Origin: an uncultured Clostridia bacterium
GTDB taxonomy: Bacteria; UBA6262; WVXT01
Length of the DNA stretch: 64,000 nt
Assembly (NCBI GenBank): GCA_964403285.1
Contig: CAYOFG010000005.1
Location: 9,995-73,994, forward strand
Direction: 5' to 3'
Shown in pieces: positions 3,741 to 54,240 of this stretch (its first letter is position 1; each line of letters opens with the position of its first letter). Below the pieces are notes generated by a model. That model worked only from the letters and a program-made list of their open reading frames with translations, searched no databases and had not been told where the DNA came from. The translations under genes and the position numbers were made by a program.

Positions 3741-5429
3741 ATGGCGCGAGAAAGAATACTGATTGTGGATGACGAGATAGAGACCAGGGATGTGTGTAAG
3801 AGGCTCCTCAGCAAAAAAGGTTATCTGGTAAAGTTCGCCGAGGATGGACCGACAGCACTCAAAGTGATTAGAGATAGTTACTTTCAAGTGGTGCTTGCCG
3901 ATTTGAAGATGCCTGGTATAGATGGACTGACACTACTGAAGCGGATAAAAGAGGAACGTCCCCGAACAGAAGTAATTATTATTACCGGCTATGCGAGCAT
4001 CAATACAGCAGTTAAGGCAATGCGCATCGGTGCTTATGACTATATTGTAAAGCCATTCGATATCAATGAACTGGCCTTAGTAGTTGGTAGATGCCTGGAG
4101 AAACAGAGGTTGACGAGCAAGGTGGGTGAACTCAAAGAGGTTGTGGCTCTTTATGAGGTCAGTAAGGCAATGCGCTCGGTTATGGATTTGGGCAAGCTCC
4201 TCAAAACCATTCTTAAATTGGCTTGTGAGACAATGGCTGGTGATGGAGGGGTGTTGATGTTATTTGATAGAGAGGGAAAGGAGTTGCTTCCCCGAGTGCG
4301 AATCGGTTTAAAGAGGAAATGGTTAGGAACCATTAAAAAGGAGATTGAGGAGAGAATACCAGAATGGACGGGAAAAGGGAATAGTCCACTGCTACTTAGA
4401 AATATGGTCGGAGATTACTCTGATGGCAGGAAGGATAAGAGGTTTAAGAATAATATTTCAGGTATTGCCGTCCCCTTAAGAATAAAAGGTAGAGTGTTCG
4501 GGGTGATAAGTGTAAATAATTTTAAGGGGGGTGGGGAGAAGTTTACAGGAGAGAGTGCGAAGTTATTAACAATATTTGCCACCAATGCTTCTTTAGCTCT
4601 GGAAAACGCAAAAATTTATGTAAGGCTGGAACAGAAGAAGAAAGATTTGGAGAAGGCTAATGAACGGTTGAGAGAATTAGATAAATTGAAATCTCAGTTT
4701 GTGTTTATTCTTTCTGGCGAGTTGAGGAGGCCATTGGCTGCGGTGCAAGGGGCGATAGATTTGTTGGCAGCAAAATTGCCAAAAGAAGTAACAGCCGAAA
4801 AAGAAAGATTAATAAAAATTGCCAGAAATAATACTACTCGCATGGGAAAGTTGATTGAGGAATTGCTCGATTTTTCCCGAATAGAAGCAAGCACTATGAA
4901 ATTAAAAATGGAGAAGGTTTCCCTACCGGAAGTTGTCTCAGAGGCAGTTATTGAATCCAAAACTTTACTTGATAAGAGAGGGATTTCCCTACAAACTTTC
5001 TTACCCAGAAGTCCTGCTGAGGTATTTGCTGATTTTTACAGACTGAAGCAGGTGATTGTAAACTTGCTCAAAAATGCTGTAAACTTTACACCCCATAGAG
5101 GAAGAGTGGCTATCCAGGTGGAAGATAGAGAAAAGGAAGTGCGGATCGCTGTTGAGGATAAGGGAATGGGAATCCCCTCTAAAAACCAGAGTAAGATTTT
5201 CGAGAAGTTCTATCAGGTCAACGGCTCTTGGATAAAGAATGCTGGCGGATTTGGATTGGGCTTATACATTGCCAAGGCTATTGTGGAGGCGCATGGAGGA
5301 AGGATTTGGGTAAAGAGTGCACCGGGTAAAGGTAGTAAGTTCACATTCGTTATTCCCAAAGAGAAAAGAGCAAAGCCCCGGCCTTGCCAGAGCGAATTAC
5401 CTAACCTTTTTGATTATTTTATGAATTAG
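3741..5429 (+). CDS. hybrid REC-GAF-HisKA-HATPase histidine kinase
   Basis: N-terminal receiver (ILIVDDE...VLADLKMPGIDG...YIVKPF), central GAF-like region, H-box region (GELRRPL), HATPase (GMGIPS, GFGLGL). It is a paralogue of 51258-53192. Confidence 0.85.
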   Translation: MARERILIVDDEIETRDVCKRLLSKKGYLVKFAEDGPTALKVIRDSYFQVVLADLKMPGIDGLTLLKRIKEERPRTEVIIITGYASINTAVKAMRIGAYDYIVKPFDINELALVVGRCLEKQRLTSKVGELKEVVALYEVSKAMRSVMDLGKLLKTILKLACETMAGDGGVLMLFDREGKELLPRVRIGLKRKWLGTIKKEIEERIPEWTGKGNSPLLLRNMVGDYSDGRKDKRFKNNISGIAVPLRIKGRVFGVISVNNFKGGGEKFTGESAKLLTIFATNASLALENAKIYVRLEQKKKDLEKANERLRELDKLKSQFVFILSGELRRPLAAVQGAIDLLAAKLPKEVTAEKERLIKIARNNTTRMGKLIEELLDFSRIEASTMKLKMEKVSLPEVVSEAVIESKTLLDKRGISLQTFLPRSPAEVFADFYRLKQVIVNLLKNAVNFTPHRGRVAIQVEDREKEVRIAVEDKGMGIPSKNQSKIFEKFYQVNGSWIKNAGGFGLGLYIAKAIVEAHGGRIWVKSAPGKGSKFTFVIPKEKRAKPRPCQSELPNLFDYFMN

Positions 5430-5440
5430 GAGGGTCTCTA

Positions 5441-7987
5441 TTGGAAAGAACATCTCAACCAGATGTCTTCTTGGTTAATATTGTATATAAATATACAGGA
5501 CTTCTCGCTGGCATGGTGTGGCCATTAATACTAATTTTGAGAGAAATTCCACTTAGTAAATTCCCGCAAACATTTTCAGTTATCTTTTTAATAGTTGTTT
5601 TTAATATTGCCAGTAGCAAAATGATGCTCAAAGGTAAGTTTCTAAAATTGAATAAGCTACTCATGGGACTACTGAATATTCTTTTCGTGACCCTTCTGGT
5701 CTACTACTCAGGCGGTTACAAGTCGAACCTCTGGGTGATGTTTTTATTGCCCCTGATAATAGTTTCCTTGTTGTATTCGCTAAAGGAGGTGATTGTCGCT
5801 GCATCTTTTGTAACGATAATTTGTAGCCTCTTCTACTTTCTCCAGACCGAGAAAATTCAATTTGAGGGTGTTGCCTGGCTATTGTTGAAGAGTAGCATAT
5901 TTTTTGTTGTAAGTCTAATCTTCAAAAAGATTGTAGAGTTAGAGACAAAACATAGGGAGGCTTTTCAGGAGAAGAGCCGCGAGCTAATTAAAACTCGGGA
6001 TTATACGGACAACATTGTTAGGAATATGTTAGATTCTCTAATTGTAATTAGCCCTGATGCTAAGATAGAAAGGATAAATAAGGCAGCACTTGATATTTTG
6101 AATTATAACGAAAGGGAACTGATAAAAAAGCCAGTTACCAAAATTTTTTCTCAGAAAGACGGAGAACTCTTACAGGGTCGCCAATGGGGGGAGTTGCTAA
6201 ACAAAGGTTTCGTCAGGGATTTCGAGTTGACTTATGTAACTAAAAGAGGAGACAGAATTCCCGTAAGTCTTAGTGGCTCGGTAATGAGGGATGGTGAGGG
6301 GAAGACCGAGGCTGTTGTGGCAGTAGTTAGAGATATGCGGGCTCTGAAGACTCTAATTGCAGGTTTAGAGAAAGCAGGAAGAGAGATTAGAGAGTATAGC
6401 CAGAGTCTGGAAAGGAAGGTTGATGAGAGAACCAAAGAGATAAAAAAGCATGCTCATGAGTTTTCTATCATTTATGAAATAAACAAAGGTATCAGCTACA
6501 CCCTTGATATCCGCCAAATTTTAGAAACGATAATGGGTTCACTCCATAGACTGATAGACTACGATGTTTTCGCATCATTATTGATAGAAGGAGGGAAAGG
6601 AGAATTAATCATAGAATCCTGCCATTCACTAGATGAGAGGTTTCTTCAGGCGGTCAAGTTGAATCTGGCAGGTGTAGCGAATTCTCTTCTCGGCCGGGAT
6701 GTAAAAGTTGAAGATTTAAGAGTTACTTTGAGAAAGGAGAAAAGTTTCAGGCTTCGGCAACAAGTTGAAGGAGAATTGGAATCTTTCCTTAACGTACCTT
6801 TGGTTATTGAAAATCTTCCCCTGGGGATTCTGCACATAAGCAGTTTTAGAAAGAATGCATTTTCTGAAGATGACATCAGAATACTTCACACCATTGCCGA
6901 CCAGGTGGCTTCTGCACATAAGAAACTGAAGGAGTTAATCTCCAAAGAGAAGAGAAAAATTGAATCGATGGTGGAGAGTATGGGTGAAGGGGTAATAATG
7001 ACTGATGAGAGTGACAATCCGCTGGTGTTGAATCCTGCAGCAAAGGGGATGCTGGGAATCTCTTCCATAGATAGTATGAGCGATGAGGAAATGTGGAATT
7101 ATTTTGGAAAGCTTAAACTGGGCAGATTGTATCAAAAACTTTCCCAACAGGCAGGTGACGGGGTGGTTACTGAGGATGTGGATTTAGACGAACCTAAGCC
7201 AATTACTTTAAAAGTCACCTCTTCCCTGGTAAGGAATCACCTGGGCGAGAGACTGGGAGTGGTGACTGTATTGCGAGATGTTACTAAAGAGAAAGAGCTT
7301 GACCGCATGAAATCCGACTTCATTTCCTTCGTCTCTCACGAGTTACGTACTCCCCTTACAATTGTAAAGGGGTTTGCGACCATTATGTTGGACGATGCAT
7401 CGGACAGGCTTACCAGAGAGCAAAAGGAACAGTTATCCTATATCAATGAGAGTATCGACCACCTTTCCCGTATAATTTCCAATCTCCTGGACATTTCCAA
7501 AATAGAAGCGGGAAAGTTGCGGCTGGAAAAGAAGAGCGTAGATATTGTCTCCTTAATTAAAAAGGTGTTACGTTCATTCAGGCTATATGCCAAAAGTAAA
7601 GAGATTAAATTGGAGACTTCTTTTGCTACAAAATTGTCCCTTGTTTCGGCTGACCCCGACCGCCTGACACAAGTACTTACGAATCTTATTGACAATGCCA
7701 TTAAATTCTCTCACAAGAATGGAGAAGTTTTTATCAAAGCAAAAGAGGAGAAAGATGTTATTGAAGTCAGTGTCGCCGATTCGGGAATAGGTATCTCTCC
7801 AGAAAATTTCAATAGAATCTTCAATAAATTCCAGAGAGTAGAGAAGGGAATTAGTTCCAAGTTGAGAGGGACAGGACTGGGACTGCCCATTTCCCGGGAG
7901 ATTATTCAACTTCACGGCGGTAAAATCTGGGTAGAAAGCGAAGAAGGAAGAGGCAGTAAGTTCATTTTTACCCTTCCCCAACAATGA
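5441..7987 (+). CDS. multi-sensor membrane histidine kinase (5-6 TM, PAS, GAF, PAS, HisKA, HATPase)
   Basis: Hydrophobic N-terminal third, PAS/GAF regions, H-box FVSHELRTPLT, HATPase motifs (DNAIKFS, DSGIGIS, GTGLGL). Confidence 0.85.
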   Translation: MERTSQPDVFLVNIVYKYTGLLAGMVWPLILILREIPLSKFPQTFSVIFLIVVFNIASSKMMLKGKFLKLNKLLMGLLNILFVTLLVYYSGGYKSNLWVMFLLPLIIVSLLYSLKEVIVAASFVTIICSLFYFLQTEKIQFEGVAWLLLKSSIFFVVSLIFKKIVELETKHREAFQEKSRELIKTRDYTDNIVRNMLDSLIVISPDAKIERINKAALDILNYNERELIKKPVTKIFSQKDGELLQGRQWGELLNKGFVRDFELTYVTKRGDRIPVSLSGSVMRDGEGKTEAVVAVVRDMRALKTLIAGLEKAGREIREYSQSLERKVDERTKEIKKHAHEFSIIYEINKGISYTLDIRQILETIMGSLHRLIDYDVFASLLIEGGKGELIIESCHSLDERFLQAVKLNLAGVANSLLGRDVKVEDLRVTLRKEKSFRLRQQVEGELESFLNVPLVIENLPLGILHISSFRKNAFSEDDIRILHTIADQVASAHKKLKELISKEKRKIESMVESMGEGVIMTDESDNPLVLNPAAKGMLGISSIDSMSDEEMWNYFGKLKLGRLYQKLSQQAGDGVVTEDVDLDEPKPITLKVTSSLVRNHLGERLGVVTVLRDVTKEKELDRMKSDFISFVSHELRTPLTIVKGFATIMLDDASDRLTREQKEQLSYINESIDHLSRIISNLLDISKIEAGKLRLEKKSVDIVSLIKKVLRSFRLYAKSKEIKLETSFATKLSLVSADPDRLTQVLTNLIDNAIKFSHKNGEVFIKAKEEKDVIEVSVADSGIGISPENFNRIFNKFQRVEKGISSKLRGTGLGLPISREIIQLHGGKIWVESEEGRGSKFIFTLPQQ

Positions 7988-10605: not shown

Positions 10606-12069
10606 ATGTGGACGAAAGAAAACTTAGAGGATACAATTAAAAATAAATTTGGTGGTTATGATTTTATCGTTGTTTCCAACCGAGAGCCATACGTCCATGA
10701 ATATTCGGGCAAGAAAGTCAGATGCGTGAAGTCTATTGGAGGTCTCACTACTGCCATTGATCCAATAATGAAGGCTTGTAAGGGTGTTTGGGTTGCTTAT
10801 GGAAGTGGAGATGCTGACAAGGATGTTGTGGATAAAAGTAACAAAATTAAGGTTCCTCCTGAGGACCCGAAGTATAGTTTAAAGAGAATATGGATGACCA
10901 AGGAAGAGGAGAACGGTTTCTATTACGGCTATGCGAATCAAGTTCTTTGGCCATTATCTCACATCGCCTATCGCCAGCCAATTTTTGACGCCTCCCATTG
11001 GGAGTATTACCAGAAAGTCAACCAGAAGTTTGCCGAAGCTATTCTGGAAGAGAAAAGAGATAAGAAATTGTTCGTCTGGCTCCAGGATTACCATCTAAGT
11101 ATATGTGCGAAAATTATCAAGGAGAAAAATCCCGATGCAATTGTCTCTCTATTCTGGCATATTCCCTGGCCCAACCCGGAGGTATTCAGGATATGTCCCC
11201 AGAAAAAGGAACTCCTGGAAGGGCTTTTAGCCAACGACCTTCTGGGATTCCACCTTCGCTACCATTGCCTCAACTTTCTGGATACCGTAAGCCAGGAATT
11301 GGAAGCCAAAGTCAATCGTGAAGAGTCTTCTGTTACCTATAGGGACCATAAGACTTTAGTGAGACCGTTTCCCATCAGCGTCGATGCCGCGGGTATCTCA
11401 CAGATGGCTAATAGTAAAGAAGTTAAAGAAAAAATGAAAAGCCTTCCGGAAGAGATAGACCCACCTTATGAAATCCTCTGTCTGAGTATAGATAGGGTTG
11501 ATTATACTAAGGGAATTTTGGAAAAAATCAGAGGAGTGGATAGATTTTTAGAGAAGTATCCCGAATACCAGGGGCGGTTCGTGTTCGTTCAGCTGGGGGC
11601 ACTGAGTCGATTGCACATCAAGACTTACAAGCAATTAATAGATGATATCCAGTCCCTGGCTGAAGATGTGAATTGGAAATACCGTTCTGGCTACTGGTAT
11701 CCCATTGTCCTCATCAATCGCCGGCTCGATTATACAACGCACCTCGCCTACTATCGCGCTTGCGACCTGTTCCTGGTAGGTTCTCTCCATGACGGAATGA
11801 ACTTGGTTGCCAAAGAGTACAATATGGCTAACGTAGACCTTAATGGAATGCTCGTTTTGAGCCAGTTTACAGGCGCAGCGAGAGAATTAAAGGATGCTAT
11901 TTTGATAAATCCTTTTGACACTGAAGGATTTGCCGATGCGATTTACTCTGCAGTTACGATGCCAGAGGAGGAGAGAAAAAAACGGGTGAGAAATATGCGG
12001 AAGATCATCCTGGAAAATAACATTTATAAATGGGCAGGGAAATTCATCCTCCAGTTAAGCGAATTATAA
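10606..12069 (+). CDS. otsA: trehalose-6-phosphate synthase (GT20)
   Basis: 487 aa. Contains VVSNREPY, GGLTTAI, NQVLWPLSH and VWLQDYHL blocks typical of OtsA. Confidence 0.8.
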   Translation: MWTKENLEDTIKNKFGGYDFIVVSNREPYVHEYSGKKVRCVKSIGGLTTAIDPIMKACKGVWVAYGSGDADKDVVDKSNKIKVPPEDPKYSLKRIWMTKEEENGFYYGYANQVLWPLSHIAYRQPIFDASHWEYYQKVNQKFAEAILEEKRDKKLFVWLQDYHLSICAKIIKEKNPDAIVSLFWHIPWPNPEVFRICPQKKELLEGLLANDLLGFHLRYHCLNFLDTVSQELEAKVNREESSVTYRDHKTLVRPFPISVDAAGISQMANSKEVKEKMKSLPEEIDPPYEILCLSIDRVDYTKGILEKIRGVDRFLEKYPEYQGRFVFVQLGALSRLHIKTYKQLIDDIQSLAEDVNWKYRSGYWYPIVLINRRLDYTTHLAYYRACDLFLVGSLHDGMNLVAKEYNMANVDLNGMLVLSQFTGAARELKDAILINPFDTEGFADAIYSAVTMPEEERKKRVRNMRKIILENNIYKWAGKFILQLSEL

Positions 12070-12077
12070 AATAAGTC

Positions 12078-12923
12078 TTGAGCAGGATAAGTATCGTGAA
12101 ATATGTTTTCCATGTTTGGCAAAATATTGAAAGGAGATTGTTCTCAGCTAAGAGGATACTTCTTCTTTTGGACTTCGACGGCACACTGACTCCCATTGTC
12201 GATCGTCCTGGGAAGGCGGAACTCCCTTCAGAGATGGAAGGAATTCTGAAATTTCTTACAAGAAAGAGAAGATTCGAGGTTGCTATTATAAGCGGAAGGT
12301 CTCTTTATGACTTAAAACAAAAAATCAAGATAAGGAACATAATTTATGTGGGAAATCATGGATTGGAGATAGAAAGGAAGGGAAAAAAATTTATCTATCC
12401 CCAAGCCTCAAAATCAATCCCCACTATGAAGGAACTAAAGAAAATTCTAAAAGCAAGACTTGGTTCTATTAGAGGAACAATTATTGAAGATAAGAGAGTA
12501 GGCTTAGCTGTACATTATAGAGGGGTAAAGAATTCCGACGTGCCAGAATTAAAGAGGACCGTGAGAGAAGTTTTCAGTCCGTTTATGGAAAAGAGGAAGA
12601 TAAGAGTTGGCCATGGGAAAAAAATGGTTGAGGCAAAACCTCCTATTATGTGGGATAAGGGGAAAGCGGCTTCTCTGCTTATAAATTCTTTCAGGCAAGA
12701 GAAACCTCTTCCCATCTATTTAGGAGATGATAAGACAGACGAAGATGCTTTTTCCTCGCTGGATGGGAAAGGGATTACTGTTTTCGTGGGAAAACCCGGG
12801 AAATCAAAAGCGAATTTTTTTCTCAAGAATATTCGTGAAGTGGGGATTTTCCTGAAGAGGCTTTCTGCTTTGAAGGTAGGAGGTCATAAACCAAGTGCAC
12901 AAGAAAACGGGCCGCCTGGTTAA
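12078..12923 (+). CDS. otsB: trehalose-6-phosphate phosphatase (HAD family)
   Basis: LLLDFDGTLTPIV (HAD motif I), later YLGDDKTDEDAF (motif III). It lies immediately downstream of otsA. Confidence 0.75.
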   Translation: MSRISIVKYVFHVWQNIERRLFSAKRILLLLDFDGTLTPIVDRPGKAELPSEMEGILKFLTRKRRFEVAIISGRSLYDLKQKIKIRNIIYVGNHGLEIERKGKKFIYPQASKSIPTMKELKKILKARLGSIRGTIIEDKRVGLAVHYRGVKNSDVPELKRTVREVFSPFMEKRKIRVGHGKKMVEAKPPIMWDKGKAASLLINSFRQEKPLPIYLGDDKTDEDAFSSLDGKGITVFVGKPGKSKANFFLKNIREVGIFLKRLSALKVGGHKPSAQENGPPG

Positions 12924-13596
12924 GGCCAGAGAGCCATTCCATTTCTATACCAGGCTTAATTTAATTGAGTTTACGGGTAAGAAAGCCACCAATTTGCGCG
13001 AGCTGGTAGAGATAATGAAAGAAGTACCGGGTTCGGTTATCTACCACCATACGCACCATTATCTGCAACAGCACCTTTATCTCTCACCGGAACCTCCCAA
13101 CGACTTTGCCTACTGGGTTACCTATATTCTTCGCGAGGATGAATTGGGAGAAGAGATTGCCAGTATTGACCTCTGCAAATTTTCTACGATTCGCTCCCTG
13201 AGAGAAAAAATTATAGAGACCATTGAACAGCATCTTGCCCAAAACCCTGAACCGCTACGCACGGCACTCCCGGGAGGAGAATTCCATTTCCTTAAGACGA
13301 TTACCTTTATTCTGCCTACTCCTTATGTTGCGGGTGACCTATTAGAGTTTCTGGAATCTATCAAGAAAATTTCTATCCATTCAATCTACTTCCATATGTT
13401 TGAGGCGAAACTAAGGTTAGAAAAAGGAGAAAACGATTTTTCTCGCTGGATTGAAGATATGCTGGGAGAGAAGGAACTTGCCGAGGAGATTGCCCGACTC
13501 GACCCTTATACTTTTACTATGGAAGGTTTGCGGGGTGAACTCTCAAGACTAATTGCCAAGTATATTCCTGGAGAAATAATCGAATGTCAACAATAA
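12895..13596 (+). CDS. conserved hypothetical protein embedded in trehalose locus
   Basis: 233-aa ORF between otsB and the TreT-like gene, overlapping both ends. I recognise no family. Confidence 0.4.
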   Translation: MHKKTGRLVKAREPFHFYTRLNLIEFTGKKATNLRELVEIMKEVPGSVIYHHTHHYLQQHLYLSPEPPNDFAYWVTYILREDELGEEIASIDLCKFSTIRSLREKIIETIEQHLAQNPEPLRTALPGGEFHFLKTITFILPTPYVAGDLLEFLESIKKISIHSIYFHMFEAKLRLEKGENDFSRWIEDMLGEKELAEEIARLDPYTFTMEGLRGELSRLIAKYIPGEIIECQQ

Positions 13597-14804
13597 GTGA
13601 CTACGAATCAATTGTGGGAGCTGATGTAATCAACGAATTAAGAATGCTCGCCCGGAAACTGAAGAATAAAGTTATTCAGAATATCAACTCCACTTCAGTA
13701 GGTGGGGGAGTAGCTGAGATTCTCGGCCGCATGGTTCCCCTCCTGCAAGATTTGGGAGTAGATACCCGCTGGGATGTGGTGGAGGGAGGAGAAAAGTACT
13801 TTCAGGTAACCAAGAAGTTCCATAATGCTCTCCACGGCAGGAAAACGGAGATTACCAGTGATGACTATGAAATTTTTCTTGAAACTACAAAGACAAACAT
13901 TGAACAGATGGAATTTTATGGCGATATAATTTTCGTTCATGACCCTCAGCCGGTAGCTTTAGTGGAAAAGAAAAAATACTTGAAGAGCAGTTGGATCTGG
14001 AGGTGCCATATCGATTTCACCTATCCCGACCCCGAAGTGTGGAAGTTTCTTAAATCCTTTGTAGAGCAATACGACGCCTGTGTTTTTTCAGCGCCTTCTT
14101 TCTCTCGCCCGTTGCCCATTAGGCAGTTTTTGATTTCTCCTTCCATCGACCCCTTAAGCGTTAAGAATAGAGACTTGTCCGAGGAAGAAATTAATGATGT
14201 TCTTGAGAGACTAAAGATAAATAGGGATAAGCCAATAATTACTCAAATTTCTCGTTTCGATTATCTCAAGGATCCTTTTGGGGTAATCGAAGCCTTCCGG
14301 CAGGTTAAAAAGTATGTCGACTGCCGACTGGTTTTGGCTGGAGGAGGTGCAATTGATGACCCTGAGGGAGCAAAAGTCTTTCAGGAAGTAGTAGAGAAAG
14401 CAGGGAATGACCCGGATATCAACGTTTTGCTTCTCCCCCCGGCAAGCGACCTGGAAATAAATGCCTTACAAAGGGCATCTACAGTCATTCTCCAGAAGTC
14501 TCTCAGGGAAGGTTTTGGGCTTACAGTGGCTGAGGCTTTATGGAAGGCTAAGCCAGTGGTTGCTTCTGCAGTAGGTGGCATACCTTTACAGATTACCCAT
14601 AAGTATTCTGGACTACTTTCCCACACAGTTCAGGGAACTGCTTATTGGATCAGGCAGCTGCTCCATAGTCCCGGGTACGCGACAAAGTTGGGCGAAAATG
14701 GTAAAGCACACATTAAGCAAAATTTCCTCCTTACCAGACACTTGAGAGAGTACCTGCTCCTTTTTCTATCCTTAGAAGAAAAAGGGGACATAATCTACTT
14801 ATAA
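13584..14804 (+). CDS. treT: trehalose glycosyltransferring synthase-like GT4 (TreT-like)
   Basis: Blocks NINSTSVGGGVAEIL, RWDVVEGG..FQVTKKFHNALHG, FVHDPQPVALV, WIWRCHIDF, SPSIDPLSVKN, PIITQISRFDYLKDPFGVIEAF, LQKSLREGFGLTVAEALWKAKPVV and LLTRHLREYL. I recall these as matching archaeal/bacterial TreT closely; the match is from memory, not a search. Confidence 0.7.
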   Translation: MSTISDYESIVGADVINELRMLARKLKNKVIQNINSTSVGGGVAEILGRMVPLLQDLGVDTRWDVVEGGEKYFQVTKKFHNALHGRKTEITSDDYEIFLETTKTNIEQMEFYGDIIFVHDPQPVALVEKKKYLKSSWIWRCHIDFTYPDPEVWKFLKSFVEQYDACVFSAPSFSRPLPIRQFLISPSIDPLSVKNRDLSEEEINDVLERLKINRDKPIITQISRFDYLKDPFGVIEAFRQVKKYVDCRLVLAGGGAIDDPEGAKVFQEVVEKAGNDPDINVLLLPPASDLEINALQRASTVILQKSLREGFGLTVAEALWKAKPVVASAVGGIPLQITHKYSGLLSHTVQGTAYWIRQLLHSPGYATKLGENGKAHIKQNFLLTRHLREYLLLFLSLEEKGDIIYL

Positions 14805-14890: not shown

Positions 14891-14922
14891 TTGACAAAAC
14901 CTGTTTTTTGTGGTAATATAAT
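14891..14922 (+). promoter_or_regulatory. putative promoter upstream of riboswitch 1
   Basis: TTGACA at 14891-14896, with TAATAT/TATAAT 17-20 nt downstream. Confidence 0.4.
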
Positions 14923-14979
14923 ATTGCCCTAAGGGAGCTTGATAAGAGTTGTTTTGACAACATAATAAGTGAGTTTGAA

Positions 14980-15058
14980 TTGTCCGATAAAGGCAAACCT
15001 CGAGAAATCGGGGGGCGCAAAACCTCGGATCTAAGGAGCCACCTCTATGATGGCCGGG
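14980..15058 (+). promoter_or_regulatory. c-di-GMP-I (GEMM)-like riboswitch, copy 1 (translational type)
   Basis: UCCGAUAAAGGCAAAC, then the hairpin CCUCGA-GAAA-UCGGGG (GNRA loop), then GGCGCAAAACC. A second stem CUCGG...CCGGG encloses the AAGGAG SD and the AUG at 15047. Confidence 0.45.
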
Positions 15059-16765
15059 TTGCCGAAGACAATAAACAATATATGGAGCCGAATAGGCAGG
15101 AAAACGTGCTTGTTCGGTTTTATATTTATATTAACTGTAGTTCCTTTAAGAATTATTGCATTTGCTGAGAGTACTGAACAGACTGTTTTAGGAAATCTCC
15201 AAGTTGTCAATAACACGCTGTTTGGAAAATTCAATTATGGCAATGAACGTGCGGAAGGATTTCTGGAAGCTAAAGAGTCTTTCCCAGGAGGGGTAAGCGG
15301 CTTTGTAATAGGGACAAACATTGGTCTGGGTTCTCTTGAGGAGAATTGCGGAAAAGGGAAAATAGACGTAAAAGTATGTTTTACTAATGATAATCCGGTA
15401 TGGGAGCGAAGCGCTCTTTATAAAGTAGGAGCCGCATGGCTTCCCCAGTTGAATCTTGGCTCTACTCACTTAAAAGCCAGGCTGGGCCTTAGAGGGGGTT
15501 ACCTTTCAGTAACGACCACTACCGAGCCGATAGACCCGCCATACCCCTCTCAATTCCTTTATGGAGGCGAGAGCGGACTATCCATTTCCCAGGAGTTCAA
15601 AGGGATAACTTTTGAGACCGGAGTTACCGGGTATATGACTTACAGTTTCTATAATCAGACTAATCAGGTTGATAATTCGGGAATTGAGTTACAGGCGGGT
15701 AGCAGAGTAGAGGTTCTTCCGGTTATATTAAGACTGGGATGGACGGGGACTTTAGTAAGCTATAATCAGGACAAATACTTTTTTCTGGATTCTATGAGAG
15801 AGGACAGTTACGAAGTTAGCATCGCCTATGCTGGAGAAAGGTTTGGTGTGGGACTATTCAATTCTCTGGAAATCAGAGAGGGAATAGAATTTGCAAGGAA
15901 GAGGGACCTGACAGGTATGGGAGTCCAGGTAGGCGGATGGTTAGCGAAGGGGATTTTCTCGCAGGACCTTCTGGTCGGGAAAGAGGCCTTCACAATTTCA
16001 CTGGGTAGAGATTTTTCTGATGCATATTTTGAAGCCTACTGGACAAAAGACCAGAATTATGTAGAGACAGGTAATGGTAACATTTTTGGAGTGAGTTTCA
16101 AGTGCGGGATTGGGCCTAAGCCATCTGATCTTGTGGAAATTGAGTCTTATAAGAGTTATGTTCGAGAAGGTGATAGTCCGTTCAACGCATTGCCCGATTT
16201 TCGCCTGCCATTTACTGAAAGCGTAGAAAGACTCGATACTATGAACAAGGTTATAAGGTACACCAGAAGTAACCTGGAATATATCCCACAGAATGGTTAT
16301 GACCGCGACCCCAAGGAAGTGTTCGAGTTGAGGGGAGGAGACTGTGATGAGCAAGTCTTCTTTCAGCTACATGCCCTGAAGTCCCATGGCTATGATGATT
16401 TATACGAACTGGCTTTCGTGTCTCCCAGAATGGCACACGCCTTCTCATACGGTAAAGATAACAGGACAGGAGAAGAATATATATGGGAGTATGGCAGGGT
16501 ATTCAGATTGGATTTTGACCCTGACTCAAGCCTCTCAGAAAAGGAGAAGATGGCAGCTATCCTTTCATCCAGGAGTTACACAGAGGACTGGGAGTATCTT
16601 TGGACTTTCAAACCCCCAAGTTCTGACTATAGGAAATACAATTACCAGGATATGGAATGCGTTTATGAAGCCTGGAGTGACGAGATAGATATTTCAGGAG
16701 ATACGGTACAAGTAATTCCTGAGTCGGGAATAAGATTATTTATCGGCACAGAATTTGAAGAATAA
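15047..16765 (+). CDS. secreted protein, paralogue A of tandem pair (function unknown; C-terminal GGDCDE-containing domain)
   Basis: 572 aa with an N-terminal signal/TM. More than 90% identical to 17145-18818 across most of its length. Confidence 0.75.
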   Translation: MMAGLPKTINNIWSRIGRKTCLFGFIFILTVVPLRIIAFAESTEQTVLGNLQVVNNTLFGKFNYGNERAEGFLEAKESFPGGVSGFVIGTNIGLGSLEENCGKGKIDVKVCFTNDNPVWERSALYKVGAAWLPQLNLGSTHLKARLGLRGGYLSVTTTTEPIDPPYPSQFLYGGESGLSISQEFKGITFETGVTGYMTYSFYNQTNQVDNSGIELQAGSRVEVLPVILRLGWTGTLVSYNQDKYFFLDSMREDSYEVSIAYAGERFGVGLFNSLEIREGIEFARKRDLTGMGVQVGGWLAKGIFSQDLLVGKEAFTISLGRDFSDAYFEAYWTKDQNYVETGNGNIFGVSFKCGIGPKPSDLVEIESYKSYVREGDSPFNALPDFRLPFTESVERLDTMNKVIRYTRSNLEYIPQNGYDRDPKEVFELRGGDCDEQVFFQLHALKSHGYDDLYELAFVSPRMAHAFSYGKDNRTGEEYIWEYGRVFRLDFDPDSSLSEKEKMAAILSSRSYTEDWEYLWTFKPPSSDYRKYNYQDMECVYEAWSDEIDISGDTVQVIPESGIRLFIGTEFEE

Positions 16766-16798
16766 AAACAAGGGCAACCAAAGAGGTGGTGCTCCCTT

Positions 16799-16835
16799 AC
16801 CGCCAGTACCAGGAAGGGTACTGGCGGTTTTTTTT
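16799..16835 (+). terminator. rho-independent terminator
   Basis: ACCGCCAGTACC-aggaagg-GTACTGGCGG followed by eight T residues, directly after the stop of paralogue A. Confidence 0.75.
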
Positions 16836-16931
16836 AAAAAAGGGGACAGGCTACTTTTTCAAAATTTTACGTATTTTTTACAATTTTTTTACACATCCGT
16901 GATATTAATAGTATAGACTGTATTTAAATAT

Positions 16932-17066
16932 TCCGAAAAGGCAAACTCCGAGCAATCGGAGGGCGCAAAGCCTTGGGGTTACATAGATATACAACATTGC
17001 AGTTGAACCAGCCGGGCTGCCGATAACGAGTAGGGGAACCCGTTAGGGGTAGCCCGGCTTTTTTTT
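16932..17066 (+). promoter_or_regulatory. c-di-GMP-I (GEMM)-like riboswitch, copy 2 (terminator type)
   Basis: UCCGAAAAGGCAAAC, then hairpin CUCCGA-GCAA-UCGGAG, then GGCGCAAAGCC. Further downstream, the stem GCCGGGCU...AGCCCGGC plus eight U residues forms an intrinsic terminator just before the RBS/ATG of paralogue B. Confidence 0.55.
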
Positions 17067-17144
17067 AATCTGCTAGCCCACAAACTCAGTATGGAAAATG
17101 CTGTCAAAAGGGATGAAAAACTTTGGGAAAGAAGTGGGGGAAGT

Positions 17145-18818
17145 ATGTTCAAGGCATGCTTGTTCGGTTTTATATTTGTCATATTGACTATAGTTTCTTT
17201 AGAGACTATTACATTTGCCGGCACTTCTGACGAGACCATTTTAGGAAATCTCCAAATTGTCAATAACACCCTGTTGGGAAAATTCAATTACGGCACTGGA
17301 CGCGTGGAAGGATTTCTGGAAGCCAAAGAGTCTTTCCCGGCAGGGGTAAACGGCTTTGTAATAGGGACAGACATTGGACTGGGTTCTCCTGAGGCGAATT
17401 GCGGAAAAGGGAAAATAGACGTAAAGGTATGTTTTACTAATGATAATCCGGTATGGGAGCGAAGCGCTCTTTATAAAGTAGGAGCCGCATGGCTTCCCCA
17501 GTTGAATCTTGGCTCTACTCACTTAAAAGCCAGGCTGGGCCTTAGAGGGGGTTACCTTTCAGTAACGACCACTACCGAGCCGATAGACCCGCCATACCCC
17601 TCTCAATTCCTTTATGGAGGCGAGAGCGGACTATCCATTTCCCAGGAGTTCAAAGGGATAACTTTTGAGACCGGAGTTACCGGGTATATGACTTACAGTT
17701 TCTATAATCAGACTAATCAGGTTGATAATTCGGGAATTGAGTTACAGGCGGGTAGCAGAGTAGAGGTTCTTCCGGTTATATTAAGACTGGGATGGACGGG
17801 GACTTTAGTAAGCTATAATCAGGACAAATACTTTTTTCTGGATTCTATGAGAGAGGACAGTTACGAAGTTAGCATCGCCTATGCTGGAGAAAGGTTTGGT
17901 GTGGGACTATTCAATTCTCTGGAAATCAGAGAGGGAATAGAATTTGCAAGGAAGAGGGACCTGACAGGTATGGGAGTCCAGGTAGGCGGATGGTTAGCGA
18001 AGGGGATTTTCTCGCAGGACCTTCTGGTCGGGAAAGAGGCCTTCACAATTTCACTGGGTAGAGATTTTTCTGATGCATATTTTGAAGCCTACTGGACAAA
18101 AGACCAGAATTATGTAGAGACAGGTAATGGTAACATTTTTGGAGTGAGTTTCAAGTGCGGGATTGGGCCTAAGCCATCTGATCTTGTGGAAATTGAGTCT
18201 TATAAGAGTTATGTTCGAGAAGGTGATAGTCCGTTCAACGCATTGCCCGATTTTCGCCTGCCATTTACTGAAAGCGTGGAAAGACTCGATACTATGAACA
18301 AGGTTATAAGGTATACCAGGAGTAACCTGGGATATATCCCACAGAATGGTTATGGTCGCAACCCCAAGGAAGTGTTCGAGTTAAGGGGAGGAGACTGTGA
18401 TGAGCAAGCTTTCTTTCAGCTACATGCTCTGAAGTCCCATGGTTATGACGATTTATACGAACTGACCTTCGTGTCTCCCAGAATGGCTCATGCCTTCTCA
18501 TATGGTAAAGATAACAGAACAGGAGAAGAATATATATGGGAATATGGCAGGGTATTCAGATTGGATTTTGACCCTGATGTAAACCTTTCAGAAAAGGAGA
18601 AGATGGCAGCTATCCTTTCATCCAGGCGATGCACAGAGGATTGGGAACGCTTCTGGGCCTTCAGACCTACAAGTTCCGACTATAGGGACTACAATTACCA
18701 GAATATGGAGTGGGTCTATCAAACCTGGAGTAACGAGATAGACATTTCAGAAGATACGGTACAAGTAATTCCCGAATCGGGAATAAGGCTATTTATTGGG
18801 ACTGAATTTGAAGAATAA
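17145..18818 (+). CDS. secreted protein, paralogue B of tandem pair
   Basis: The ORF is called from 17091. The ATG at 17145 (MFKACLFGF...) has the strong RBS GGGGGAAG and aligns with the start of the signal peptide. The body is near-identical to paralogue A. Confidence 0.75.
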   Translation: MFKACLFGFIFVILTIVSLETITFAGTSDETILGNLQIVNNTLLGKFNYGTGRVEGFLEAKESFPAGVNGFVIGTDIGLGSPEANCGKGKIDVKVCFTNDNPVWERSALYKVGAAWLPQLNLGSTHLKARLGLRGGYLSVTTTTEPIDPPYPSQFLYGGESGLSISQEFKGITFETGVTGYMTYSFYNQTNQVDNSGIELQAGSRVEVLPVILRLGWTGTLVSYNQDKYFFLDSMREDSYEVSIAYAGERFGVGLFNSLEIREGIEFARKRDLTGMGVQVGGWLAKGIFSQDLLVGKEAFTISLGRDFSDAYFEAYWTKDQNYVETGNGNIFGVSFKCGIGPKPSDLVEIESYKSYVREGDSPFNALPDFRLPFTESVERLDTMNKVIRYTRSNLGYIPQNGYGRNPKEVFELRGGDCDEQAFFQLHALKSHGYDDLYELTFVSPRMAHAFSYGKDNRTGEEYIWEYGRVFRLDFDPDVNLSEKEKMAAILSSRRCTEDWERFWAFRPTSSDYRDYNYQNMEWVYQTWSNEIDISEDTVQVIPESGIRLFIGTEFEE

Positions 18819-18834
18819 GGGCAGCCAAATAAGA

Positions 18835-19027
18835 GGTCTCTGAAAAAGTATTGACTTTGGTCTGTCATTGCGAGTCCCGATTGAAAATCGGGGCGTGGCA
18901 ATCTGACATAAAGTGTCATTGCGAACGAAGTGAAGCAATCTCGTAATTCCGCACGAGTTTGCTTCGGCTTCGCCTCGCAACCGCTTTGCTCCTCGCAAAG
19001 ACATCGATGGGGACTTTTTCAGAGACC
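18835..19027 (-). repeat. 197-bp MITE-like element, inverted copy
   Basis: Reverse complement of 10269-10465 with a few indels. It has the same terminal inverted repeats. Confidence 0.8.
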
Positions 19028-20923: not shown

Positions 20924-21892
20924 CTAAAATTTAACTTGTAGTTGAGTCATGAACAAATCGTTTCGTATACTCGGGGTTTCCATTTTTTGTTCGTAATTAT
21001 TTCTGAAGAGAACATTTTTATCAATGAAATAGTTCACTCCCCAGGTCCACCTGCTATTTTCATTATTTGATACATTTATATCTGGATCCAGAGAATCGTA
21101 TCTTAGTAATATGACTACAGATGGGATTAAGGTATATCCTGCAGTGACATAATATCCTTCCTGCTTTGTTGTTTCATCAATACCTGTAATGTATTCTGCT
21201 TTACACATAAATTTTTCAAATTCATATTTCATTTCGAAACCCGTTCGGTTCTTTGTAATACTGTTGGCACGAACGGAGCCATCATAAATTGAAGCCCCGA
21301 CACTAAGGCCGACTATGGGTAGGAATAATATTCTGCCTACGACTGTTTTTTGAGAATTTTCCTCTGCCTGATTCGAACCACTCCCGTTAAGAATTGCAAC
21401 AAAAACATTTGATTTTATGGATTTCAAAGAAAAACTTCTGGAGAGTTCAATACCGATATCTCTTGTGGGCTTTACAGAGTTATTTACAATATCCGATTTA
21501 TCTATAAATTCTAAATCAGCGTCTGGGGTACACTGTTCAAGTGAAAACTTGTATTTAAACTGTCCAACACGTAATATAAAATATTTGATTGATTTGACGT
21601 CAAAATAAGTATCATAAATTAACTTATTATTAATAGTATCAGTATTACTACCTTCAAGTGAGAAACAATATGAAATATTTTTTGATATATTCCCAATAAT
21701 CCCAAACCTCGATTGAGCAATACCAAAGCCGTCTTTTGCTCCTTCCGTAGTATCTGCAGTATATCTGACCCTGGCAAAACCGGCAAAACTAATTTTAGGA
21801 AAATCGGAATCTGCACTTGTTAATACCTGCATTGAAAATGCGGTCTTTACTGAAAAGAATAATACAATGCAAAGCAAGAAGTATTTTTTCAT
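20924..21892 (-). CDS. outer-membrane beta-barrel porin (phosphate-selective porin O/P-like, putative)
   Basis: Signal peptide MKKYFLLCIVLFFSVKTAFS, alternating amphipathic strands, and a C-terminal ...QLQVKF ending in an aromatic residue. Confidence 0.5.
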   Translation of the reverse strand: MKKYFLLCIVLFFSVKTAFSMQVLTSADSDFPKISFAGFARVRYTADTTEGAKDGFGIAQSRFGIIGNISKNISYCFSLEGSNTDTINNKLIYDTYFDVKSIKYFILRVGQFKYKFSLEQCTPDADLEFIDKSDIVNNSVKPTRDIGIELSRSFSLKSIKSNVFVAILNGSGSNQAEENSQKTVVGRILFLPIVGLSVGASIYDGSVRANSITKNRTGFEMKYEFEKFMCKAEYITGIDETTKQEGYYVTAGYTLIPSVVILLRYDSLDPDINVSNNENSRWTWGVNYFIDKNVLFRNNYEQKMETPSIRNDLFMTQLQVKF

Positions 21893-21921: not shown

Positions 21922-22743
21922 TTATTTAAATACATCAGGAAAAAACAAGGGCTCACCAAATTTCTCAACCCCATAATTTTTGATAATGTTTTGTCCCTCA
22001 GTGCTTCTAAGAAATTCAGCAAAATTTTTTGCTAAATCATATTTTACCCAGGGAAATTTGGATGGGGAAACCACAATTACAGAATAAGGGTTGTAAAGTT
22101 CAGGGTCATCATTAACAAGTAAATCAAGTGTATCAATCTCTTTTTTGTGTGACAACCACGTAGCCCTATCGCATAATGAATATGCAACTTTTTCATTTGC
22201 AATTCGCAATGTAACTTCCATACCAGAGCCACTTTCAATATACCAAGTGGAGGAAGGCTTCATACTTAGCTTTTCCCATAAATAAAGTTCCTTTTTATGT
22301 GTACCTGAATCATCACCTCGTGAAATAAATATGGATTTCGTTTCATATATTCTTTTTAATGCTTCTAAAGATTTAAGTCCTTTTATTCCTGCCGGGTCAT
22401 TTTTAGGGCCGATAATAAAAAAATCATTATGCATTATATCAAGCCTTTTTACCCCATAACCCTCAGCTACAAATTGCTCCTCGGATTTTCTGTCATGAAC
22501 AAGAATTACATCTGCATTACCATCTTTGGCAAGGCGCATTGCCTGTCCTGTTCCCACGGCAATTATTTTCACTTTACAATTGTATTTCTTTTCAAAGGGT
22601 GGTATCAAGACATCAAATAATCCTGAATCTAATGTTGAGGTAGTTGAAGCAAGTATCAGGCTCTTTTGGGCACTCACTTCAGAACTAAATCCAACAACCA
22701 ATAAAACAATTCCAAGAAAAAGGGGACAGGCTACTTTTTTCAT
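21922..22743 (-). CDS. periplasmic substrate-binding protein, TupA/WtpA-like (tungstate/molybdate-type PBP)
   Basis: Signal peptide, then ASTTSTLDSGLFD and RGDDSGTH motifs resembling TupA-family oxyanion-binding proteins. No permease or ATPase is adjacent. Confidence 0.45.
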   Translation of the reverse strand: MKKVACPLFLGIVLLVVGFSSEVSAQKSLILASTTSTLDSGLFDVLIPPFEKKYNCKVKIIAVGTGQAMRLAKDGNADVILVHDRKSEEQFVAEGYGVKRLDIMHNDFFIIGPKNDPAGIKGLKSLEALKRIYETKSIFISRGDDSGTHKKELYLWEKLSMKPSSTWYIESGSGMEVTLRIANEKVAYSLCDRATWLSHKKEIDTLDLLVNDDPELYNPYSVIVVSPSKFPWVKYDLAKNFAEFLRSTEGQNIIKNYGVEKFGEPLFFPDVFK

Positions 22744-23134
22744 TATTCACCTCAAAAATAAAAAATCCAGCATTCCGCACTTGCAAAATACTGGACTTCG
22801 TTTCTCCTTCTCAAGCACGGAAAGCGCACCGATTTCTCAATGCACTCTATCGGCCATCAACCATATCTTTTGGACTTAGGCAAAGTGGCTCGGAGAATAT
22901 TTTTATAGCATAGTATAAAAATTATACTTTTTTGTCAAGTAAAAAAGAGATAGATGTTATCCAAAGGCTTTACCCACCCAGATTCTCGTTCTGGGAATCT
23001 TAACTTACCGGCAACCTCTGTTCGCTTCTGGTCATTTAGAAGTGAAAGCTTGACGAATTCTTATTTTCCTTGATTTTTATAGGAGGTTTAGATATAATAC
23101 TTTTGGTATTCTGGATAGTTCTAAGGTTGTGGAT

Positions 23135-53229: not shown

Positions 53230-54240
53230 CTAAAAATGGATGATTAATGAAATCTTGTTATCCCGGGTATAACCTATCATTTCACTTGCCGGCACATTAG
53301 CCCAATCGAATTGATAGTTCTTAAGTTTAATCCCCATCCCGTAAGTTGCTCCCCTAACATTGCCATCTTTTTCATAATAACCAAATCGTAGGAAAATTGC
53401 ATCTTTGAATTTGTGTTCTCCTCCCATATGTATGCGCCATCGGTCGTTGAGAACTTTGTTAATATCACTGGCAATGATCCAGGGACCCTTATTGTAAGAA
53501 AGACCTAATCTTATTGTTCTCGGTAAATCATCCTTTTTGATTTCTCCTTCCATCTGAAGTCTGTTTCCTGCATTTAAGAGAGAAGACCCCAGATTCAATC
53601 CCTTGGCAAAAGGAAATTCATAAATGAGACCAAAATCTCCAGAATATGCTGTTCCTTTGGTAGTTCCAAAGATAGGGTCACTTTCTATCCGTTGGATTAC
53701 CTTAAACCCAAGACCAAAAGAAAGGCCTCCTGTAACTTCTTTACCATACGATAATGCTAATGCCCAATCTGTCCACCTTAGGTTCCCCAAAGTTTTACCC
53801 CCTGTATCTGTTACCGGGAGAGGGTCAATAAACAAAAATACCCCACTTATTTCATAAGTTCCCCAACCCTTTACGGGAACAGCTAAACCAAAAAAGTTAA
53901 GGAAAGCGTCCCTTACCGCCTCGCTATACATTGCTGCGCATTGTATCCTCTTTATTTTTGCTAACCCTGCAGGATTCCAATAAGCAGAAGTTACGTCAGA
54001 ATGGAGGGAAACAGAGGCCTCTCCCATTGCAGAGGGTCTGGCTCCTATGCCAAATATAAGAAAATCTACATAGGTGGGACGTATATCGCCGGCATATGCA
54101 TTTTTTACTAATGCACAAAATGCAAAAATCAAAAATAAAATTTTAAAAGTTGATTTAATCATTTTCCTAATCTGGTAGTCGCAAGCTTTAGCTTGCGTTA
54201 AACTTCGCAGTCTGCGGGATATTTTGTTCACAGGGCTCAT
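53230..54240 (-). CDS. outer-membrane beta-barrel protein, PorV/FadL-like family
   Basis: Signal peptide, GIGARPSAMGEASVSLHSDVTSAYWNPAG (same family motif as 47547), and a C-terminal ...ISLIIHF. Confidence 0.45.
   Translation of the reverse strand: MSPVNKISRRLRSLTQAKACDYQIRKMIKSTFKILFLIFAFCALVKNAYAGDIRPTYVDFLIFGIGARPSAMGEASVSLHSDVTSAYWNPAGLAKIKRIQCAAMYSEAVRDAFLNFFGLAVPVKGWGTYEISGVFLFIDPLPVTDTGGKTLGNLRWTDWALALSYGKEVTGGLSFGLGFKVIQRIESDPIFGTTKGTAYSGDFGLIYEFPFAKGLNLGSSLLNAGNRLQMEGEIKKDDLPRTIRLGLSYNKGPWIIASDINKVLNDRWRIHMGGEHKFKDAIFLRFGYYEKDGNVRGATYGMGIKLKNYQFDWANVPASEMIGYTRDNKISLIIHF

Follow-up and report, generated by a model that had tools for sequence, protein, structure and literature searches.

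Anatomy of the locus

The window analysed here, the whole stretch of 64,000 nucleotides from contig CAYOFG010000005.1 of an uncultured Clostridia bacterium, contains a tandem pair of closely related genes, each of which is preceded by its own riboswitch of the c-di-GMP-I class, the aptamers for cyclic di-GMP (c-di-GMP). Copy 1 (15047-16765, + strand) encodes 572 amino acids (aa), as supported by the listing of open reading frames (ORFs), homologues, structure models and fold searches. Copy 2 (17145-18818, +), supported by the ORF listing, homologues and an alignment of leaders, encodes 557 aa counted from ATG 17145, which is the conserved start within a longest listed ORF of 17091-18818; the in-frame ATG at 17091 is not conserved in either L001 or L006 in the leader alignment. 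Here and below, W_1 and W_2 denote copy 1 and copy 2 of the window, T1 and T2 the riboswitches of copy 1 and copy 2, L-numbers related loci and P-numbers homologous proteins. The reading favoured here, which we regard as moderately probable, is that of an old tandem pair shaped by gene conversion, which encodes a β-barrel joined to a protease-like domain and whose leaders, of different origin, would wire the two copies oppositely to c-di-GMP.

Identity profile and gene conversion

The two copies align from 15107-16790 and 17157-18837 with 93.7% identity over 1687 nt and 2 gaps (BLASTN). A global alignment resolves within this region a run of 851 bp without a mismatch, the putative conversion tract, at 15374-16224 (+) on the copy-1 side and 17427-18277 (+) on the copy-2 side, and identity in 100-nt windows of its flanks drops to 75-94% (5') and 77-96% (3'). 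Because these flanks are only about 90% identical, the perfect run is not attributable to chance. An earlier note on this DNA, made from its letters alone, had described an essentially identical central segment with diverged ends, and both the description and its coordinates are essentially right. At the protein level, W_1 and W_2 are separated by 21 substitutions in the C-terminal portion and about 20 in the N-terminal portion, and their N-termini are unlike, with MMAGLPKTINNIWSRIGRKTCLF in copy 1 and MFKACLF in copy 2.

The 3' flank, which encodes the C-terminal domain, displays a dS of 0.418, a dN of 0.058 and an omega of 0.14 between W_1 and W_2 (Nei-Gojobori), compared to a dS of 0.005 and a dN of about 0 in the centre. 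These rates indicate an old duplication, purifying selection on both copies and recent homogenisation of the centre alone; the earlier description of the duplication as recent thus fails on a dS of 0.42 in the unconverted 3' flank. That a tandem duplication took place is well supported by the relatives. In L001, an independent metagenome-assembled genome, the gene order otsA, otsB, DUF5752, treT, copy 1, copy 2 and a PAS histidine kinase is as in the window, and more pairs or partial pairs are found in L006, L012, L041 and L130. The closer and more distant relatives L004, L002 and L007 carry one copy at the syntenic site.

The affinities of the two copies to their orthologues change from segment to segment, in agreement with the gene-conversion mosaic that had been proposed. 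In the 3' segment, W_1 is nearest to copy-1 orthologues (L006_1p, 93.7%; L004, 93.2%) and W_2 to copy-2 orthologues (L006_2, 91.3%; L012_2, 92.4%), whereas in the centre W_1 equals W_2. The L001 pair, by comparison, is about 92% identical throughout (92.7% in the centre), with no long identical run. A further mosaic is presented by L037, with 95-97% identity to W_1 in the 5' and central segments and 89.6% in the 3' segment. The window centre is nearly equidistant from a T1-controlled gene (L037, 96.9%) and a T2-controlled gene (L006_2, 95.9%) and does not point to the donor side. As mosaics recur in other genomes, the pattern is, on these alignments, one of repeated gene conversion and hence concerted evolution of the pair. 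The copies would be old tandem paralogues whose gene bodies are homogenised by recurrent conversion, the latest tract here being the 851 bp described above. Concerted evolution of duplicated bacterial genes by gene conversion is known from cases such as tufA/tufB, in which an internal tract is likewise homogenised, the flanks are diverged and paralogues within a genome are closer than orthologues. Unlike conversion of the tufA/tufB type, that in the window ends before the regulatory 5' ends, which differ in origin.

The copy-1 riboswitch and its embedded start codon

The leader of copy 1 begins with a promoter-like element (14891-14919, +; TTGACA-17-TAATAT, with a TG before the -10 hexamer) that agrees with the consensus at 10 of 12 positions and is kept in the window, L001, L004, L002 and L007 in the leader alignment; a second, weaker promoter candidate lies at 14939-14966. 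The T1 aptamer follows at 14982-15066 (+) and is a type-1 c-di-GMP-I aptamer bearing a GAAA tetraloop and an 11-nt receptor (UCUAAG/UAUGA), the latter differing from the 11-nt receptor by one U-A in place of C-G. It matches RF01051 over the full length of the model with 79.6 bits against a gathering score of 35 (cmscan). The alignment places a G at the G20 position, an A at A47 and GCC at C92 (Vc2 numbering), the ligand-contact bases of the class, and the aptamer is nearly invariant among 19 distinct leaders.

The sequence and the cmscan structure line place the Shine-Dalgarno (SD) sequence AAGGAG (15033-15038) and two adjacent in-frame ATGs, at 15047 and 15050, all inside the P2 hairpin of T1 (15033-15052, +). 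The SD sequence shares nucleotides with the receptor, in its 5' half, and with the distal P2 stem, ATG 15047 is formed by A8-U9-G10 in the 3' half of the tetraloop receptor, and ATG 15050 covers two P2 base pairs and a bulge. Codons 2-8 are provided by the P2 3' strand, the C92 region and the P1 3' strand (GACA), such that the aptamer encodes M(M)AGLPKT. Full-text literature searches returned no description of a start codon inside a c-di-GMP aptamer.

The start inside the aptamer is taken as the real start of copy 1 because several lines of conservation converge on it. The segment GATGGCCGGGTTGCCGAAGA does not vary among six leaders whose genes encode proteins of 42-88% identity, and at least one of the two ATGs is present in 19/19 distinct T1 leaders; the first is missing in L007, L052 and L009, where the variable U9 of the receptor is A or C, and the second in L035. 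Indels 3' of the aptamer occur in multiples of three in the leader alignment, M(M)AGLPK is kept in proteins with just 40% identity, and the T1 leaders contain no other conserved in-frame start with an SD sequence ahead of the hydrophobic core. Even in L009, although the distal P2 is rebuilt, AAGGAG is still found 10 nt upstream of an ATG. A control set of 129 aptamer instances with the same P1 motif was obtained with a broad metagenome DNA pattern that returned mostly unrelated c-di-GMP-I aptamers. Among these, an ORF start inside the aptamer (offset 58-61) was seen in 23 instances of the window gene family and in 2 others, both doubtful, and all classifiable T1 aptamers (22/22) precede members of the gene family and have an ORF start at this offset. 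L009 itself carries two tandem paralogues (3956-5743 and 6001-7617) of a lineage of about 40% identity; a c-di-GMP-I riboswitch, again with the start codon inside, was detected only before the first, and the second might share the transcript of the first, or its leader may have diverged.

Since P1, P2 and the docking of tetraloop and receptor, where the SD sequence and AUG lie, are stabilised by the bound ligand, T1 is predicted to be a translational OFF switch, in which ligand-induced folding and docking would bury the ribosome-binding site. An alternative pairing for this OFF reading was neither found in T1 nor needed.

A second structured element is found further downstream, within the signal-peptide codons. 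This hairpin (15080-15125, +), which lies 34 nt 3' of AUG 15050, has a core 14-bp stem formed by GAGCCGAAUAGGCA and UGCUUGUUCGGUUU and a U-rich stretch behind it. It is present in 18/18 distinct T1 leaders with 14 bp or longer and a ΔG of -19 to -26 kcal/mol, and was scored as terminator-like by a terminator scan. Of the hairpin cells in the alignment, 97.3% are paired, versus 96.1% in column shuffles and 30-50% in slid controls, and changes are mostly one-sided and wobble-compatible. Because the shuffles already reach 96.1% and the changes are mostly one-sided, structural selection on the hairpin is not separable from coding conservation in this alignment. The hairpin was considered as the expression platform of T1 and rejected, as it has no strand in common with the aptamer and its covariation is weak.

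The copy-2 riboswitch cassette

The copy-1 transcription unit ends with an intrinsic terminator (16799-16836, +) composed of a 12-bp stem with 8 G-C pairs and a T8 tract, which is conserved in L006 and not in L001. An Rfam hit to NsiR1 at 16787-16835 (+) that stays below threshold (27.7 bits; gathering score 39) falls on this terminator and almost certainly reflects the hairpin only. Further downstream, a promoter-like element (16888-16917, +; TTTACA-18-TATAGA) is conserved upstream of T2 aptamers, before members of the gene family and unrelated genes alike. The T2 aptamer (16931-17025, +) is of type 2: its loop is GCAA, its distal P2 is long and an 11-nt receptor is absent. Its best Rfam match is RF03167 (c-di-GMP-I-GGC), at 62.2 bits against a gathering score of 59 (cmscan), where RF03167 is shown as the best clan member and the score under RF01051 is masked by clan competition; on the T2 aptamers of L001, L006, L130, L131 and L140 the same model scores 61.9-65.2 bits. 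The leaders of the two copies can be aligned by BLASTN only over 55 nt at 82% identity, corresponding to the first (P1) hairpin of the aptamer. T2 keeps a G before the GC of P1a, an A right after the closing GC (CGCAAA) and GCC after P2 in the cmscan alignment, and by these contact bases T1 and T2 are both treated as ordinary c-di-GMP sensors.

The expression platform of T2 is an intrinsic terminator (17010-17066, +), in which AGCCGGGCUGCC (17010-17021) pairs with GGUAGCCCGGCU (17048-17059) in a 12-bp stem followed by a U8 tract (17059-17066). The minimum free energy fold of 16925-17070, at -53.3 kcal/mol, contains this 12-bp stem, and the terminator is conserved in all T2 modules with wobble-compatible changes. 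Its 5' arm is made up of the P2 3' strand and the C92 region of the aptamer. Because the terminator uses this aptamer strand, the two structures are mutually exclusive and ligand binding should therefore favour read-through; T2 is thus predicted to be a transcriptional ON switch.

The whole module of promoter, aptamer and terminator is conserved in the window, L001 and L006. It was found in 26 loci and precedes 6 genes of the family and, in related metagenomes, 16 unrelated ORFs, and homology among these modules stops directly after the U-tract. Among the other genes led by the cassette is a giant ORF of >3,876 aa (L011:483-12110, also in L090, L049, L122, L128, L099 and L076) with the N-terminus MVAWW.SKANKIWLR, for which Pfam gives only SecA-like domains at residues 1327-1788; as these are its only domains, the possibility that this ORF encodes an adhesin or a substrate was rejected. 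The cassette also leads a stand-alone response-regulator receiver protein of 127-139 aa (L075, L095, L097 and L013), an arrangement suggestive of a small c-di-GMP ON regulon that reuses a single riboswitch module.

Probable replacement of one riboswitch by the other

The earlier note had viewed a riboswitch together with its gene as the duplicated unit. Homology between the copies starts only at about 15107/17157, the aptamer subtype and the expression platform of copy 2 are different, and the copy-2 module also precedes unrelated genes, all of which speaks against duplication of the riboswitch along with the gene. The copy-2 genes instead retain remains of the T1 3' half, located 3' of T2 within the 5' coding region, and these are preserved to various degrees in different genomes. 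The T1 3' half is intact in L098_2 (AAGGAGCCACCTCTATGATGGCCGGGTTGCCGAAGAC). In L001_2, L131, L041 and L140 the remnant has diverged to TTAAGGAGCTACC...ATGTTTAAGGCGATTGATAG and gives MFKAIDSGDV, while L006_2 and L012_2 have a 45-nt deletion in it. The largest deletion is that of W_2, in which ATGTTC adjoins AAGGCATGCTTGTTCGG and MFKACLF results.

The most economical history of these leaders would begin with duplication of an ancestral T1-controlled gene. The T2 cassette, comprised of promoter, aptamer and terminator and used by the lineage for other genes, would then have replaced the promoter and T1 5' half of the downstream copy. The orphaned T1 half, freed from RNA constraint, would have decayed or been deleted to leave the shortened MFKACLF N-terminus. 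The N-terminal regions had been called rebuilt, and the difference between them is real; its probable cause is not generic divergence, but an N-terminus encoded by the aptamer in copy 1 and by a decayed, partly deleted remnant in copy 2, and it is through this decay that the N-terminus of copy 2 would have come to look rebuilt.

The encoded protein and its host

The earlier note could name no family for the encoded protein and suspected a transglutaminase- or cysteine-peptidase-like C-terminal region, and both views are upheld. The 28 close homologues, all metagenomic, are likewise without Pfam domains, and a search of the PDB with the family profile gave no match. An exhaustive profile search collected 164 proteins, about 60 of them at E <= 1e-10, and many of the latter have a two-domain layout of ~530-600 aa. 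A tail of short proteins matches only residues ~380-480 and carries DUF553, Transglut_core or Peptidase_C93 (E = 1e-10 to 1e-4), and 6 of 32 diverse family members match Transglut_core, with a best E of 8.9e-6.

The full-length AlphaFold2 (AF2) model (pLDDT 72.6) displays an N-terminal helix, ~18 β-strands at residues 46-353 that form a barrel of 16-18 strands, and an α/β C-terminal domain. For copy 1, this corresponds to a signal-like N-terminus, a β-barrel at about residues 46-353 and a transglutaminase-fold domain at about 380-560. The modelled barrel is closed and antiparallel and resembles solved outer-membrane proteins. As barrels dominate a Foldseek search with the full-length model, the C-terminal domain was modelled separately (pLDDT 63.4), and this model matches CPR-C4 with E = 1.2e-4 (TM 0.43) and LapG with E = 3e-4, LapG structures 4fgo, 4u65 and 4fgq being among its top fold matches. 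Other matches include 3ISR, vasohibins, PNGase and a TGase, with E from 1e-4 to 1e-2 and TM from 0.3-0.44 overall. The residues C433, H464, D471 and E481 are invariant or nearly so. In the C-terminal domain model (pLDDT 63), C433 (in GGDCDEQ) starts helix 79-91, H464 is located in strand 109-116 with D471 right after it, and E481 falls in strand 123-127. On these models, the protein is best described as a β-barrel fused to a transglutaminase-fold domain that is putatively a cysteine protease or a transglutaminase; it would be a secreted two-domain protein with a C-terminal domain related to CPR-C4 and LapG.

The host looks diderm, because the window contains a Porin_O_P gene next door to the pair and, elsewhere, a protein with a Por_Secre_tail domain. 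The catalytic domain may lie in the periplasm, as that of LapG does, or may pass out through the barrel in the way of inverse autotransporters. Taxon labels of the relatives conflict, with Clostridia, Firmicutes, Aminicenantes and Elusimicrobiota among them. A full-length homologue (P0027; 24% identity) is encoded on an archaeal contig (L147:4001-5713) that also bears eL42, S3Ae and GINS genes; it overlaps the end of the upstream gene, and a further Transglut_core protein is encoded nearby. For an archaeon, a porin-like barrel is an odd prediction. Partial homologues and distant sequence relatives are found in genomes of the Candidate Phyla Radiation (CPR). An Rfam search found no c-di-GMP riboswitch with the distant relatives.

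Alternative readings

The existence of two copies is not in doubt, because a pair with distinct leaders and 3' ends was assembled independently elsewhere, as complete pairs in L001 and L130 and as partial ones in L006, L012 and L041. The identical tract itself could still be an assembly artefact, in which a single copy, or two diverged copies whose central 851 bp were fused when short-read bubbles collapsed, has been mistaken for recent conversion. The locus is evidently hard to assemble, because the contigs of many independent relatives break inside the gene (L006, L012, L022, L035, L041, L042, L066, L115, L133, L135, L136 and L138), and the L001 pair without a long identical run, along with the confinement of the exact W_1 and W_2 proteins to the window contig, fits an artefact as well. 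Yet the unique flanks force one path, from the copy-1 5' end through the repeat, the copy-1 3' end, the intergenic region and the repeat again to the copy-2 3' end, and mosaic identities across genomes, such as that of L037, reveal concerted evolution independently of this contig, which makes an artefact improbable. Less credible still is a T2 that belongs to the genuine c-di-GMP-I-GGC variant and senses another ligand, such that the paralogues answer two signals. RF03167 is indeed the top Rfam model for T2 and its orthologues (62-65 bits versus 59), but this higher score is explained by the tolerance of the model for a long, receptor-less distal P2. The defining G of the variant (consensus GACGCGAAgCc) is an A in the window (GGGCGCAAAGCC), the G20-equivalent G and the GCC of the C92 region are canonical, and the assignment was rejected on the alignment of model GACGCGAA to window GGGCGCAAA, with an A at the variant-defining G.

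The remaining alternatives concern T1 and the intragenic hairpin behind it. The polarity of c-di-GMP-I riboswitches is not always readable from sequence, as illustrated by Vc1 and Vc2 of Vibrio cholerae, and both polarities exist within the class. Both window switches could hence act in the same direction on a dosage pair, with T1 not gating translation at all but using the hairpin at 15080-15125 as a terminator, or being ON by an unseen mechanism. In favour of such an arrangement, a strong, terminator-like hairpin with a U-rich tail lies 3' of T1 in all 18 leaders. On the other hand, since it has no strand in common with the aptamer, and the predicted fold contains it with or without a formed aptamer, this hairpin alone cannot transmit ligand binding; its U-rich tail doubles as signal-peptide codons, evolutionary support for its pairing is weak (96.1% in shuffles versus 97.3%), and the SD sequence and AUG are physically within the ligand-stabilised fold. 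A common direction is therefore unlikely. A refinement of the OFF reading, rather than a replacement for it, is that T1 acts in two layers, the ligand blocking initiation and the hairpin terminating transcription in a pyrBI-like manner when no trailing ribosome is present. An initiated ribosome, only a few codons in, would melt the 5' arm of the hairpin, given its distance from AUG 15050. The hairpin occurs in all T1 leaders, as a shorter GCCGAACC/GGUUCGGU form even in L009 (42% protein identity), it encodes n-region residues (SRT.R) whose conservation is unusually high for a signal peptide, and its 5' arm is missing from W_2, a copy that has ceased to depend on T1. Set against this are an imperfect U-tract (UUUUAUAUUU, UUUUCUAUU), retention of the hairpin in copy-2 genes without T1 (L001_2, L006_2 and L041_2) and a pair count that cannot split RNA selection from coding conservation; the two-layer model is purely inferential, and we consider it conceivable, if rather doubtful.

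Several further points weigh against the reading of an oppositely wired, converted pair of barrel-anchored proteases. Sequence searches of Pfam, NCBIfam and the PDB with the window protein gave no match, confidence in the structure models is moderate (pLDDT 72.6 and 63.4) and the TM to LapG and CPR-C4 is only 0.35-0.44. The barrel need not sit in the outer membrane, and insertion there is not a family-wide property, because of the archaeal full-length homologue and the CPR relatives. The P2 hairpin of T1 could form without ligand, which would bear on the dynamic range of the switch, and an intact T1 half 3' of T2 comes solely from one 2.2-kb contig (L098). Bubble collapse in the assembler could have made the tract look more uniform than it is, with a few real differences erased, as a search for independent sightings found the exact W_1 and W_2 proteins on no other contig. 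Lastly, opposite regulation of near-identical proteins has no obvious rationale unless their 21 C-terminal and ~20 N-terminal substitutions matter.

Comparison with known systems

The c-di-GMP-I (GEMM-I) riboswitches reportedly comprise a type 1 and a type 2 (Weinberg 2007; Sudarsan 2008), and both window leaders share their two-hairpin aptamer and canonical ligand-contact bases. T1 corresponds to type 1, with its GAAA tetraloop and 11-nt receptor, and T2 to type 2, with a GYRA loop, no such receptor and a classic terminator-competition platform. Unlike GEMM-I riboswitches as described, T1 has its SD sequence and start codon in P2 and the receptor, and its aptamer 3' strand and P1 3' strand encode the first 8 residues of the protein. 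The pbuE adenine riboswitch and the GEMM-Ib cGAMP riboswitches of Geobacter are ON switches in which the aptamer 3' strand is the 5' arm of the terminator, and T2 resembles them in that its 12-bp terminator stem takes up the P2 3' strand and the C92 region; its ligand class, unlike theirs, is c-di-GMP as judged by the contact bases alone.

In Clostridioides difficile, the protease ZmpI/PPEP-1 is behind a c-di-GMP-I OFF switch and its adhesin substrates CD2831 and CD3246 are behind c-di-GMP-II ON switches. PDB entries 7OB6 and 7PJO, the best structural match to the window C-terminal domain, represent the CPR-C4 cysteine protease of the Candidate Phyla Radiation; identity to it is just 15-20%, and CPR-C4 has neither barrel nor riboswitch. 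COG1305 yebA transglutaminase-like putative proteases are located behind tandem c-di-GMP-I riboswitches in Bacillota (PMC12452182). The C. difficile and COG1305 cases share with the window a secreted protease or transglutaminase-like enzyme under a c-di-GMP riboswitch, and opposite polarities within one module. They differ in that the opposite polarities are predicted here for two paralogues of one enzyme, which belongs to another family and has no known substrate. LapG, of the BTLCP family (Peptidase C93), is a periplasmic protease that releases adhesins and is controlled by c-di-GMP through LapD (PMC3032545). The window protein is LapG-like by analogy at most: both have a transglutaminase-fold cysteine protease domain (modelled here), a tie to c-di-GMP and a location outside the cytoplasm (presumed here), whereas the window protein has no PF06035 match, is fused to a large N-terminal β-barrel and would be controlled by riboswitches on its mRNA, whereas LapG is sequestered on LapD. 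Genes resembling those for LapD, LapA or LapE were not seen next to the window copies.

The components found here are already known separately, namely riboswitches of the c-di-GMP-I class, terminator platforms of the ON type, c-di-GMP-controlled proteases with a transglutaminase fold and gene conversion that acts on paralogues. What is unusual is an aptamer that at once supplies ribosome-binding site, start codon and initial codons; two aptamer subtypes of opposite predicted polarity on paralogues that conversion otherwise keeps alike; surviving intermediates in the displacement of one riboswitch by another; and an unannotated family of barrel-plus-transglutaminase-fold proteins.

Neighbourhood and other riboswitches of the window

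The neighbours of the pair are trehalose genes and the PAS histidine kinase. A DUF5752 gene (12895-13596, +) lies between an otsB-like trehalose-phosphatase gene and treT in every syntenic relative, which suggests a trehalose-related role for the DUF5752 family. Downstream of the pair, the Porin_O_P-family porin gene (20924-21892, -) adjoins a 273-aa periplasmic-binding-protein-like ORF (21922-22743, -) with a Moco/tungsten riboswitch (22788-22907, -; 70.5 bits) upstream. A third c-di-GMP-I riboswitch (55860-55945, -; 84.2 bits), with its own terminator-like platform, precedes two genes. One (54307-55779, -) encodes a 490-aa secreted protein with a C-terminal sorting domain of the type IX secretion system (T9SS) type (Por_Secre_tail), and the other (53230-54240, -) a protein of 336 aa with no Pfam match and an aromatic last residue, as is typical of outer-membrane barrels. 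In the relative L004, a downstream FtsH gene (11511-13722) has intein and LAGLIDADG Pfam matches inside its AAA domain that are absent in the L006 and L007 orthologues.

Implications

The net prediction from the two leaders is that isoform 1 would be made at low c-di-GMP and isoform 2 at high c-di-GMP. If the polarities are true, one second messenger would reciprocally control two paralogues through two subtypes of a single riboswitch class. Tentatively, and with less confidence than doubt, c-di-GMP may be envisaged as an isoform selector that, as its level rises, swaps one version of a barrel-anchored, LapG-like protease for another through the two switches of opposite polarity, where conversion keeps the barrel identical while selection keeps the regulatory ends and the catalytic surface distinct, and where the OFF aptamer is itself translated, perhaps with a translation-coupled terminator inside the gene.

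Part of the T1 aptamer would be coding sequence at the same time, by which the RNA structure fixes the first residues of the protein. The leaders also point to a route of regulatory rewiring, in which a portable cassette of promoter, aptamer and terminator lands on a duplicate and the old aptamer decays in the reading frame, with stages of the process kept in different genomes. Members of the unannotated protein family are found in uncultured diderm bacteria, in CPR bacteria and on at least one archaeal contig, and the link of the family to c-di-GMP in this lineage provides a lead to its function.

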